Of a DNA stretch of 64,000 nt, positions 14,567 through 59,232 are shown piece after piece. The DNA is from Octopus vulgaris (taxonomy: Eukaryota). Position numbers and translations under genes: made by a program. The notes under the pieces are model-generated. The model worked only from the letters and a program-made list of their open reading frames with translations, made no database searches and had not been told where the DNA came from. The DNA lies in contig OX597819.1 in the NCBI GenBank assembly GCA_951406725.2, forward strand, positions 56,110,001 to 56,174,000, read 5' to 3'. Every line of letters starts with the position of its first letter. Position 1 is the stretch's first letter.

Positions 14567-15710
14567 TATATTTGTGTGTGTGTATGTTTGTCTCCGCTCC
14601 ACCTCTTGACAACCAGAGTTAGTTTGTTTACGTTTGCCTATCTAAGGAGTTCAGCAAGAGAACGATAGAATAAATACCAGATAAAAAAAAAAACTCCTTG
14701 GTACTAGGAGCAATTTGTTCAAAGCTGTGCCCCATCACCGCCGCATTTCAATGACTGAAATAGGTAAAAGATAAAAAGGAATAAAAATGGTAAAAAATAA
14801 ATGCACTATTAACCTTTCCACTGAACTCATTCATTGTTATTTATAGACATTTAACATATGTCCGATAAATATATTCACAATTCTTTCATAAATATTCTAA
14901 AATTAAGCTTTTGTCTATATTGTATTATAATAATTATCGATTTGCAGCTGTTCTGTTTTTCAACCGTTCATAATTTTAACATTCCAGGAGATTTCAAATG
15001 ATAATTAAATAACGTAGGAAACAGAAATATGGAAATTCACCTGAGAGAATTGTGCGACTTCTAATGAAAAGTCGTAGTAAACGTGTTCCATTGGAAGCTT
15101 TCGTTCCCAGAAGATTTATGTGCGTTTTAATCTAGCTTAAGAATAAATCTATTTGGATGGGTGAAATTAATTTCTATATACGTGTCTCCATCTCTGAGAC
15201 AATAGTATTTCATATTTGAATTATCATTTTGATTCTATATATTTTAAGATATTTTCTTCTAAGTTTTGTATTTTTGCTGGTAGTCATTCAAGTGAACAAA
15301 ATCACATTTATATTTAGACTTTATTTCCTTCTCTTATTCATATTCAGTATTAATACTGATTTCATTACTATAAATGAGATTGTGGCTAGAATTATTCAAA
15401 CTATAAACAGCATTTTCCAAAAATAAAGACAAAAAAAAATATTGAAATGTTTGTGTCCTTGTCCTTATTTTACAATACGAACACAACCAAGGTTATGTAT
15501 ACACATGCACACATATATACACACACATGCACACAAACACACACATTGGTGAAAATATCACTATAACTATCCGTCTGCCATTTTGTATGAATTATTGATT
15601 GTTTCTCTCTTTGTTTACCCCGCCTTCTCCATATATATATATATATATATATATATATATATATATATATATATATATATATATATATATATATATATAT
15701 ATATATATAT

Positions 15711-15900
15711 AAAGTTAATCCAAACAAGAAAACACAGAAAAAAAGAGAAAAAAAACACAACAACGCAGGACGTGGAACAATTAAAGTATTATTGACGCTC
15801 AGGAAAGAAGGGAAGGAGGGTTTAACGTTTCGAGCGGAGCTCTTCGTCGGAAACAAGGAGAAGGAAAGATCCCAAGGAGGGAAGACAGAGGAGACAATAT
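15711..15900 (-). mobile_element. Penelope-like terminal fragment (family C) with minimal hammerhead at 15820-15854
   Basis: Minus strand gttt-CCGACGA-a gagc tcc gctc-GAAA-cg-TT-aaac; 3' end joins (TA)n; same 3' end at 63889-63947. Confidence 0.7.
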
Positions 15901-16328
15901 TTGAGCTGGTGGTGCTTAAGAGATCACATGTTGAAAAGAACAGAATTTGGAGGTAGTTGAAAAATGGTTTTATAATGCAAGAGAGTTCCAAAAAAAAGGA
16001 ATGCCTGTGTGTGTGTGTGTGTGTGCAAGATGACAAGTGTGTTTGTGCGTGTGTGTGTGTGTGTGTGTGTGTATTTTTTGATGAATGAATGTAATGACAA
16101 AGCCAGCTGTGGTGATGACTGCTAGCTGTTTGTGTCAAGCTAGGTCAAAGCCAGGTCAAAAAACAAAGGGCTATATGTATCATAGTGTATGTGTTGTTTG
16201 TATATATATGTGTGTGCGTGTGTGTATGTGTGTGTGTGTGTGTGTGTGTGTGTGTGTGTGTGAAATATTTAAGTTGATATGATGTAATAATGACCTAGTG
16301 AAATATATATATATATTTTATATATATA

Positions 16329-16560
16329 TTAATAGTAATAGTAAGACAGCAAAAGATTGAAAGAGACCTCGATATTATGCAAATAGAGGAATTTATCTGT
16401 AAATATAATATGTGACAATTGTTCGGTAGCCATGATAAATCTCCGAGTTTCGGATGTCGGTGCGGAAACCCGCATCAGCATCTCTTCAGTTATCGGGACA
16501 TTAAAAATGCTATGAAAATGACCGTTTAACAAATGGAAATGACTATGTGATTGACCGTTA
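16329..16560 (-). mobile_element. Penelope-like terminal fragment with degenerate hammerhead at 16434-16494
   Basis: Minus strand gataa-CTGAAGA-gatg..tgcgg gttt ccgca..catc c-GAAA-ctcggag-at-ttatc; U16.1 not conserved. Confidence 0.6.
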
Positions 16561-17029
16561 TTAAGACAAAAGAGCTATTAGAATGACCGCTAAATAAGGG
16601 GAGGGAGTAAAAGGTAAAGGAGTAAAAATGCTCATAGCAATCGCGTAAGCGCGCATGTCCATACATACATATGCGTGCCCGCACACCCAACTACATGTGC
16701 CTATAGGCATATACTCATCCACACTCACTTTAAACACACACATTCGCCAAATAATATATACATACCCGATTACACGCTCACACACACACACAGCTGTATT
16801 ATAATCTACTAATATAATAATGAGTGTAGAGCTTTTATATATTTGTATATATGTATCTATATATATATTTGTCCAAAATCACGCAGTAAGGTTGAAGGGA
16901 GAGGAGAGAAAACAGTAATTCAGTGAAGGAGAAGTAGTGAGAGTAATACCCATGACTGAGAGGGAGTGGGAGAAAATAATAACAATGAGAGAGAGAGGAA
17001 GTGGCAAAGAGAGCGTCGTGCATCTTCTA

Positions 17030-57106: not shown

Positions 57107-57300
57107 AGAAGGTTGAAAAAGAACACACGAGTTGATATGTAAAGGAAAATAAGACAAGTTAGAAAATACTAAAATAATTTTATCACAAAGAACATTTTAG
57201 TACCGGTTTCAGCCTTTGCGACTTTTCAACTTAGAGTAAAGCATGAAAAACAATTAAATTGTGGAAAAATTATATGAAGTGTTTTTTAAAACTATTTCCA
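57107..57300 (-). mobile_element. Penelope-like terminal fragment with variant hammerhead at 57197-57233
   Basis: Minus strand ag-TTGAAAA-gtc gcaaa ggct-GAAA-ccgg-TA-ct; U3-A8 core; 3' end joins (TA)n. Confidence 0.5.
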
Positions 57301-57507
57301 TAGTTTTCAAATGCAAGGGACATTTTCCTTTTTCTGTCTGTCTCTCTTTTTTACTTAAGAGTAATATATGTACATAATGTGTGTGTATATATATGCACGT
57401 ATATGTAAGTATGTATACATATATACAATAAACACATTTATGTACAAGTTGATTACTTCCTACCCCTCTTTATATCTATCTATCTATCTATCTATCTATC
57501 TATCTAT

Positions 57508-57962
57508 GTGACTAACTAAGTTTGGGCGTATGTATTTGTATATATTTAAGTATACATACATATCCTTTGTTTGTATGTATGTATGTATATATTAGGGGGA
57601 AATAGCTGAAATAGCAAGCAAGTATATGTATTTGTGTATACGTGTCCATATGTATGGTTATATTATAGACGCAAAATCGACACTATCTATCTATCTATCT
57701 ATCTATCTATCTATCTATCTATCTATCTATCTATCTATCTATCTATCTATCTATCTATCTATCTATCTATCTATCTATCTATCTATCTATGTGACTAACT
57801 AAGTTTGGGCGTATGTATTTGTATATATTTAAGTATACATACATATCCTTTGTTTGTATGTATGTATGTATATATTAGGGGGAAATAGCTGAAATAGCAA
57901 GCATATGTATTTGTGTATACGTGTCCATATGTATGGTTATATTATAGACGCAAAATCGACAC
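57508..57962. repeat. ~175-bp direct duplication separated by (TCTA)n
   Basis: gtgactaactaag...aaatcgacac at 57508 and 57791. Confidence 0.9.
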
Positions 57963-58479
57963 AGGAAGCAATGTGTATGTGTGTGTAAGAAAAGTTAAAA
58001 ATCGAAGCTCATCAAAAATGGTTTGAGAAAATCAATATTGCTAGGGTTGGGAAGGTGGGGAGAAATGTAGGTTTTAGCCTTTTAGGTTTACACAAACGCA
58101 TAGATATAGACTTATACTTCGTATGTATGTATGTATGTATGTATGTATGTATGTATGTATGTATGTATGTATGTATGTATGTATGTATGTATGTATGTGT
58201 ATATATGCATATGCAATATGCATACATATACGCACATTCAGATACATACGCATGCATATATACACATACATACACATATTTATATGTATGTATATATACA
58301 TACATATATATATACATACATATATATTCATATATACGTATATATATATATATATATATATATATATATATATATATATACATATCTGTATACATACATA
58401 TCTGTATACATACATATACATACATATGTATACATATATATATATATAAATACATTCATACATACATATATAACTTAAA

Positions 58480-59232
58480 CAATATTTTATAATTACGAGT
58501 ATAACTATAATTAGGGTTCAGCAAAGATTTGCTTTATCACATACCGAAATTTAGAAATAGCAGCCAAAGAACCTTAGCTATTTCTTCTACTGTAAGAAGA
58601 GGGTCTCGGACAAAACAAAATACTCGAAATAACCCATGCGGACAGAGAGGAAAAATAACGAAATTCACTCGGTATTTGATTACCTGTGGACGCGTTTCGG
58701 AATTAGATCGGTATGAAGAATGTAAAAATCATACTTCACCCAAACGTTTTCCTCCTCAGTACAGGAATCCACGATATTAGATTTGAGAGCACTGGAATTG
58801 AACATACCTATCCAATTCAAAGCAGTATCAGACAAATCATATTCAACGTCCAGTACCAGCGAATTCAAAATATACGAATAAGGTTCCTCACCTTCCCTTG
58901 CCCATCCACGTGTGTTGTCGAGTAAAAATACTACAGAAAAAACTGTAGTTTATTATCAGGGAGAGAATTATATTATCAATAATAATAAAGGGTAAAATTA
59001 ATTAATTAACTAGTAATTAATAATTCCACCACGTAGAATTCGGCATGATAAAAGGACCATTTTTCGGTAAACTTAATATTTTATAATTACAAGGAAAAAT
59101 GTGATTTTTACATTCTTCATACCGATCTAATTCCAAAACGCGTCCACTGGTAAAAAAATGATCCGTTTATCATGCCGAATTCTACTTGGTGGAATTATTA
59201 ATTACTAGTTAATCAATTAATTATTATTGATT
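58480..59232 (-). mobile_element. Penelope-like rearranged element (family F)
   Basis: Hammerhead at 58683-58765; its partial inverted copy at 59102-59152; second inverted pair 58995-59052/59166-59225. Confidence 0.75.
58683..58765 (-). ncRNA. Type I hammerhead ribozyme
   Basis: cctgta-CTGAGGA-ggaa...ttcc-GAAA-cgcg-TC-cacagg; one stem I mismatch. Confidence 0.8.

Follow-up and report, generated by a model that had tools for sequence, protein, structure and literature searches.

Why do the hammerhead ribozyme motifs in one stretch of the Octopus vulgaris genome face (TA)n microsatellites? This stretch, hereafter called the window, comprises 64,000 nucleotides of contig OX597819.1 (assembly GCA_951406725.2, positions 56,110,001 to 56,174,000). 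It has a GC content of 35%, numerous short interspersed elements (SINEs) and 90 runs of (TA)≥5. A sequence-only reading of twelve hammerheads had stated as a rule that the end downstream of the ribozyme joins the (TA)n tract, and had proposed target-primed reverse transcription that starts at the tract and possibly extends it. We find that the polarity is real as a tendency, and is not a rule. Most probably, the hammerhead elements come from Penelope-like elements (PLEs), as 5′-truncated 3′ ends and non-autonomous derivatives, and entered (TA)n that was already there through target-primed reverse transcription. Most of the hammerheads likely point to TA because they lie near the 3′ ends of such short copies, and the ribozyme marks where the 3′ end lies, rather than being a demonstrated cause of the (TA)n join.

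First, we searched both strands of the window with a scored type I hammerhead descriptor, blind to the earlier list, using local shuffles as the control. At a score of at least 17, the window contains 16 motifs, as compared to 0.33 per local shuffle; at a score of at least 21, it contains 15 and the shuffles contain none. These 16 motifs are predicted type I ribozymes, well above the shuffle level. The scored descriptor superseded stricter ones, which lost bulged motifs and those with a mismatched first pair. Rfam at the gathering score gave no hammerhead match in the window, and the best 150 of the 214 matches in an E-value run were exclusively of the microRNA type and driven by microsatellites. 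Minimum free energy folding of 14 sequences (z from −2.65 to +1.35) recovered the hammerhead folds poorly, and was excluded as support. Ten of the twelve sites on the earlier list pass the blind descriptor, but 22961 and 57197 are degenerate. The former (core near 22965) failed the descriptor, with a broken core and a fold z of +0.11, although it still aligns with element D (letters refer to the table). The latter has a weak stem I and a U3-A8 core, a variant known from Schistosoma (PMC4209133; here and below, the cited papers are represented by the parts available to us). Its score of 16.6 is not above chance, because the shuffles give 0.77 such matches each. The blind scan also added six motifs that were absent from the earlier list, at 2043−, 41419+, 691+, 9673−, 44858+ and 53731+.

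How are these motifs oriented relative to (TA)n? A TA run is defined here as (TA)≥5 unless stated otherwise, with a stricter set of at least 8 units, and distances are taken 3′ from the predicted cut. A TA tract indeed lies 3′ of all twelve listed sites, 35–253 nt from the cut. In the blind set, 11 of the 16 motifs have a TA run within 250 nt on the 3′ side, against a background of 0.186 (p = 1.6e-5), while the 5′ side has such a run in 3/16 (p = 0.59). With runs of at least 8 units, the 3′ count is 8/16, against a background of 0.144 (p = 8e-4). Enrichment over the abundant (TA)n, which the sequence-only reading had left to be tested, is thus confirmed within the window. Counted per insertion (n = 13), with a 260-nt cut-off that was picked after seeing the data, TA lies on the 3′ side in 10/13 (p = 1.2e-5) and on the 5′ side in 3/13; with at least 8 units, the 3′ count at this post hoc cut-off is 7/13 (p = 0.0013). 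The comparison with the 5′ side is the weaker one, because the element body occupies that side and inflates the distance.

The 3′ tendency is significant, but 9673, 44858 and 53731 break the supposed rule; downstream of 9673 and 53731, there is only (TA)4. The earlier list was therefore a favorable one: among the six unlisted motifs, only two obey the polarity directly; of the others, three fail and one is a tandem twin. It had also been claimed that the single-arm copies lack a nearby tract on the 5′ side. This is true for 15850, 16489 and 57197, where the nearest 5′ tract is 479, 419 and 1105 nt away, but 20148, 22965 and 41419 have TA on both sides, with the 5′ tract 182, 126 and 55 nt from the cut. 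The 5′ boundaries of these single-arm copies are undefined.

Is (TA)n simply dense enough for any repeat end to lie near a tract? The 90 runs in 64 kb, and the omission of counter-examples from the earlier list, are what such a chance proximity would need. We nevertheless reject it within the window, and consider it extremely improbable, in view of the blind-set p value, of control SINEs whose ends are rarely at TA, and of a (TA)n junction that recurs at a fixed point in public contigs (see below). The outer ends of three control SINE families adjoin TA in 1/22, 1/22 and 1/6 cases, with boundaries taken from the window self-comparison and by eye. The SINE comparison suggested in the sequence-only reading is not uniform, however. 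A tRNA-like SINE adjoins TA at 6/8 ends, on both sides and including the 5′ head, and TA association is therefore not special to the ribozyme elements. Its copies (10683–10804, 18468–18862, 20475–20770 and 35798–35984) represent a second, symmetric (TA)n inserter; ARAGORN found no tRNA, and the "tRNA-like" label was given by eye.

Next, we examined the architecture of the elements by window self-comparison. They occur as inverted dimers, tandems and single arms. In eight inverted dimers, the arms are 95–99.6% alike over the aligned columns, with gaps uncounted (99% in element I). In dimers with hammerheads, these face outward, which makes both outer ends 3′ ends. One-sided tails are found in six dimers (B, G, I, K, N and P); in element A, one arm is longer by ~50 nt to the first unit end, and in element J the long arm runs on. 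Two D-family copies stop at the identical base before TA, and the short arms of G and I have a common end site within a base or two, while their fold-back points differ. An alignment of 11 element ends has a mean identity of 33% and no invariant column, and therefore no common tail exists outside the group of G, I, K and 10078. Partial tandems are present in element A (a 277-nt repeat) and in family J (go-back joints).

Inverted repeats between TA tracts, some with no hammerhead detected (19746–19967 and 61065–61711), would also be expected if the palindromes were (TA)n-targeting MITEs (miniature inverted-repeat transposable elements), DNA transposons in which the hammerheads are passengers, and mariner-like MITEs do occur in the window. 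This origin is very unlikely. Equal terminal inverted repeats and a fixed length are not found: the arms are unequal and the tails one-sided, and G and I, members of one family, fold back at different points. Moreover, single-arm and tandem copies occur, the hammerheads face outward on both arms, and the mariner-like MITE control adjoins TA at 1/6 outer ends.

Copies beyond the window were sought by matching contigs from four runs of four studies to 44653–45860 at 85% likeness. Family J is clearly abundant: the summed depth on J is 1.5e5–1.2e6, as compared to 34–56 on the unique flank (X1, X3 and X4), where depth is not copy number. The X1 depth decreases from 756k to 420k and 69k over the bins ending at 45062, 45103 and 45144, which suggests two J-family termini ~40 nt apart. 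Among the rows listed, at least 29 X3 contigs run into (TA)n behind 45063, ~173 nt 3′ of the cut, at a junction that corresponds to the minus-arm end of element J at 44653. In a second family (45215–45308), (TA)n stands before 45244 in at least 22 X3 and at least 19 X6 contigs, again among the rows listed. Three of the 24 loose-end rows listed, from a total of 1462, are TA, and none of these three is 5′ of a hammerhead; judged by eye, the three loose-end rows at 44846 are similar to window positions 45170–45200. When metagenomes were scanned for a 17-nt family motif, the 25 loci obtained had neither TA runs nor a longer match, and we took them as chance.

In addition, J-family joints lead back from 45195–45207 to 44854–44867, which gives a tandem unit of ~350 nt. 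This closure, together with the two hammerheads of element A in a 277-nt tandem, makes it possible, though only tentatively so, that the elements are rolling-circle non-LTR (long terminal repeat) retrozymes copied from circular RNA, with a PLE partner supplying the (TA)n insertion and the termini representing fixed points of the circle. Like metazoan non-LTR retrozymes, for which a derivation from PLEs has been argued (Li et al. 2026, bioRxiv 10.64898/2026.07.22.740005), elements A and J have tandem non-coding units with one type I hammerhead each; unlike retrozymes as described there, the window elements form inverted dimers and target (TA)n. Against this account, most copies are single or inverted, with tandem hammerhead units in element A and family J only. 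The retrozyme account is compatible with the insertion of PLE 3′ ends, and is mostly a sub-case of it.

How would PLE-derived RNAs generate such copies? A trans-acting protein with reverse transcriptase (RT) and GIY-YIG functions would bind the element RNA and nick AT-rich DNA, as published PLE work leads us to infer. Synthesis of the complementary DNA (cDNA) would start at fixed internal sites 35–250 nt downstream of the hammerhead, and the hammerhead-side end would therefore always meet the target. Its early termination would produce copies of 100–300 nt. If both strands of the self-complementary (TA)n were nicked and priming took place at two different start sites, the products would be head-to-head dimers in which both outer ends are 3′ ends and one of them is tailed. 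The window directly displays the sense hammerhead, the 3′ TA junction, fixed termini common to independent copies, one-tailed dimers and tandem units. The traits of endonuclease-positive (EN+) PLEs present in it are the near-3′ sense hammerhead, the inverted copy with a one-sided tail, the partial tandem and the preference for (TA)n.

Published PLEs carry hammerheads near their 3′ ends, prefer (TA)n as the target, and form inverted 5′-truncated copies with a one-sided tail of 30–40 bp (PMC8557442). According to the same paper, (TA)n is the target of Hydra-, Naiad- and Neptune-clade PLEs, and is preferred by 26/27 Hydra families and all three Octopus Naiads. From the positions given there, we computed a Hydra-clade cut-to-end distance of 29–354 nt (median 78, and at most 152 in 23/24), after excluding an antisense entry and a family whose 5′ repeat contains the motif. 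The window elements resemble Hydra-clade PLEs, including Hydra-1_Obim, in the sense type I hammerhead, whose stem III is short and self-complementary, the cut near the 3′ end, the (TA)n target, the 5′ truncation, the inverted 5′ copy and the one-sided tail; a CCC-containing motif near the 3′ end, read by eye, is shared with Hydra-1_Crog and Hydra-1_Amil (PMC8557442). They differ from this clade in that no open reading frame (ORF) was found in the window copies, and in a hammerhead-to-end distance of up to 250 nt. The Octopus Naiads have the (TA)n preference, inverted copies and tails (PMC8557442); however, they are without canonical hammerheads and could explain only the hammerhead-less palindromes.

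Other PLE clades offer further likenesses. Minimal hammerheads are found in pseudo-long terminal repeats (pLTRs), with opposite-strand pairs 100–700 bp apart (Cervera and de la Pena 2014, PMC4209133), and the minimal hammerhead of element D, with an extra base before stem II, and the opposite-strand pairs are like those of Neptune and Penelope/Poseidon PLEs. A purified Penelope-like protein, predicted to form a dimer, nicks AT-rich DNA on both strands; two internal RT starts downstream of the hammerhead define the tail, and insertion in vitro is unaffected when the hammerhead is mutated (Frangieh et al. 2024, PMC11167929). Such nicking and internal starts would explain the tails in the window. 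In contrast to the window short arms, which stop at TAT(A) in 6/8 dimers, the Poseidon start site is without homology to the cut DNA (PMC11167929). De novo PLE insertions at a microsatellite target in Chlamydomonas have a median of 128 bp (PMC9977147). The polarity is thus the known 3′-end geometry of PLEs and no new rule, since the published anatomy already implies it; no explicit formulation as a rule turned up in the literature searched. The available parts of PMC13282606, PMC8969392 and PMC6962438 hold nothing on junctions. 3′-only TA junctions, microhomology priming and tract extension were likewise not found for PLEs, and subscription papers, Repbase and bioRxiv supplements beyond our reach may state these.

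Do the elements make the tracts that they adjoin? We consider it quite unlikely that a telomerase-related RT of the element makes or lengthens the 3′ TA tract by copying an internal UAUA repeatedly. In three of the single-arm copies, TA is confined to the 3′ side, but three others and most of the dimers have it on both sides, the tracts flanking element H are similar (52 and 53 nt), and the short arm of element B adjoins only 12 nt of TA. The tracts at 15 hand-picked element ends have a median of 48 nt, as compared to 35 nt in the other 41 (p = 0.004), in a set biased upward by the omission of junction runs below 8 units; moreover, longer tracts also offer larger targets. The short arm ends at most a few bases from an internal TAT(A) in A, B, G, I, K and N, and not in J and P, against a chance of 0.19 per site (p = 0.001, or 0.004 with G and I counted once, by a post hoc criterion), and that of K shares up to 8 nt with the tract. 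Such stops would also result if the sequence from the internal TATA to the tract had been deleted later.

The insertion site of element A bears directly on this question. A SINE family (2–1408, 7917–8125, 8975–9408, 34375–34837, 36962–37465, 45910–46300 and 46989–47439) has an internal microsatellite that varies among CA, TA, TATC and TATG, and element A interrupts the CA/TA microsatellite of one such copy. In seven uninterrupted paralogues, the longest TA is 30, 33, 9, 0, 5, 5 and 42 nt, as compared to 46 nt at the filled site, where the entire TA lies on the long arm's side. Since three of the seven insert-free paralogues already hold 30–42 nt, the tract need not be an insertion product. Of the proposal in the sequence-only reading, the start of target-primed reverse transcription at (TA)n agrees with element anatomy and with the PLE literature, but the extension of the microsatellite is unsupported. 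Judging from this site, element A appears to have entered at the tract edge, and we infer edge nicking as the preferred reading of the copies with TA on the 3′ side only.

At the tract edges, the motif [ACT][AT]CCCT, chosen by eye, points into the tract at 10/59 non-simple edges, as compared to 1/59 on the other strand and a background of 5.5%; these ten edges include two duplicates and three from one family. The CCCT motif, often as TTACCCT, is found in unrelated families within the 50 nt beside TA at 1221, 1830, 19133, 19473, 20342, 21329, 44599, 44652 and 47574, and we take TTACCCT to be close to the C-rich telomeric repeat. PLE derivatives might thus prime in a telomerase-like manner, which we regard as speculative and unlikely: the nicked (TA)n would anneal to the internal UAUA for the second arm, CCCU located 5–40 nt from the long end would position the RT, and slippage would lengthen the tract. 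If so, PLE activity would feed the (TA)n abundance that PLEs target.

Several observations weigh against the insertion of PLE 3′ ends at (TA)n. Pfam detected no RT or GIY-YIG domain in the 12 frames of elements B and M, and scans with short end motifs in all six frames gave no convincing RT/GIY-YIG remnant; the window copies, being short, probably do not extend as far as the PLE ORF. Six short window motifs have no family-level match in the available part of the Craig 2021 supplement (PMC8557442), and the window tails, 70–126 nt long, exceed the 30–40 bp published for the Hydra clade. Three blind motifs (9673 in element C, 44858 and 53731) break the polarity. Half of the six single-arm copies lack TA on the 5′ side, which plain mid-tract insertion would not predict. 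The contigs over 44653–45860 contain no empty allele, where those of the unique flank start at 45359, beyond the skipped repeat. Finally, the evidence comes from one window, and the wider evidence from two families and 24 of the 1462 loose-end rows. The elements work like (TA)n-targeting PLEs, but their membership in a named clade is unproven, because no ORF was found and the six motifs are without a family match.

Table. Hammerhead elements and related features of the window, with predicted motifs and adjoining TA tracts ("unlisted", absent from the earlier list; distances are from the predicted cut to TA on the 3′ side)
Feature	Positions	Strand	Structure	Hammerhead core and distance to TA	TA at the ends
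A	198..1220		inverted short arm 198–433 (−) plus ~277-nt partial tandem	969+ (cut 1002), 219 nt; 691+ (unlisted; cut 724), upstream tandem twin of 969+, 497 nt	3′ end joins TA 1221–1266
B	1831..2508		head-to-head inverted dimer	2043− (unlisted), 130 nt, obeys polarity; 2383+, 43 nt, 12-nt run	long arm (88-nt tail), TA 1765–1830; short arm, TA 2509–2520
C (family of J)	9414..9700		tail-to-tail pair	damaged 9673− (unlisted), nearest 399 nt, polarity broken	3′ end joins own inverted piece, no TA tract
D	15712..15900	−	single arm, minimal hammerhead; 5′ boundary undefined	15850− (cut 15824), 113 nt	3′ end joins TA 15631–15711; terminus matches copy ending at 63946
E	16330..16520	−	single arm; 5′ boundary undefined	16489−, U16.1 changed, 110 nt, runs of 10 and 14 nt	3′ end, short TA 16303–16328
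P	19746..19967		inverted dimer, 70-nt tail	none detected	between two TA tracts
F	20018..20341	+	single arm	20148+, 143 nt	both sides
G	20820..21328		inverted dimer	20992−, 106 nt	short arm, TA 20784–20819; long arm (126-nt tail), TA 21329–21376
Degenerate relative of D	22875..23034	+		broken core near 22965+, 35 nt	both sides
H	41399..41622	+	single arm	41419+ (unlisted), 170 nt, obeys polarity; TA also 55 nt 5′	both sides
I (family of G)	44012..44598		inverted dimer, 97-nt tail on + arm	44185−, 109 nt; 44327+, 206 nt	TA 43970–44011 and TA 44599–44652
J	44653..45207		inverted dimer, high-copy family, tandem unit ~350 nt	− arm, half hammerhead, cut 44823; + arm, 44858+ (unlisted), nearest 1009 nt, polarity broken	− arm joins TA 44599–44652; + arm continues to ~45207 without TA
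Second high-copy family	45215..45308	−	3′-end fragment		other copies meet (TA)n at point matching 45244
K	47575..48328		3′ end duplicated, inverted short arm ending at internal TATATATA; 87-nt tail	47878−, 253 nt	TA 47535–47574 and TA 48329–48382
N	52685..52992		inverted dimer, fold-back inside hammerhead; 95-nt tail	3′ halves only, cuts 52720− and 52861+, 36 and 132 nt	both outer ends
L	53700..53960	+	boundaries approximate; counter-example	damaged 53731+ (unlisted), nearest 1970 nt, polarity broken	(TA)4 only, downstream
Possible U3-A8 variant	57108..57240	−	not above chance	near 57197−, about 103–105 nt	TA 56998–57096
M	58473..59231		partial inverted copy 59102–59159, further inverted 3′-end piece	58759−, 241 nt, 14-nt run within degenerate TA array	degenerate TA array left; TA 59232–59260 right

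Further pieces in the window are without a detected hammerhead. Stacked short pieces lie between TA tracts at 19133–19660 and 53027–53093, one of them duplicated, and one piece of the former region recurs at 53027 with an identical terminus at TA. They are probably 3′ ends cut off before the ribozyme. Additional long palindromes at 61065–61711 (between two TA tracts) and 43520–43729 may be Naiad-type ends or MITEs. The inverted arm of element A (198–470) has many small deletions relative to its partner, possibly a sequencing effect on the hairpin. A non-LTR reverse transcriptase fragment (PF00078) at 17114–18184 (−), presumably CR1/L2-like, is unrelated to the hammerhead elements. By eye, we take 49430–51340 to be a broken hAT-like transposase, and 14076–14557, 54277–54830 and 60153–60712 to be mariner-like short elements.

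The finding is real yet largely ordinary, as the element layout has already been published for PLEs. For annotation, a Penelope-like 3′ end can be recognized by an outward-facing hammerhead next to (TA)n, and many MITE-looking short palindromes between TA tracts are likely PLE dimers. These dense, young and dimer-rich families would be good material for studying the way in which PLEs form inverted copies and tails. Should microhomology priming or the lengthening of tracts be borne out genome-wide, it would tie PLE priming more closely to telomerase and would be one source of microsatellite growth.

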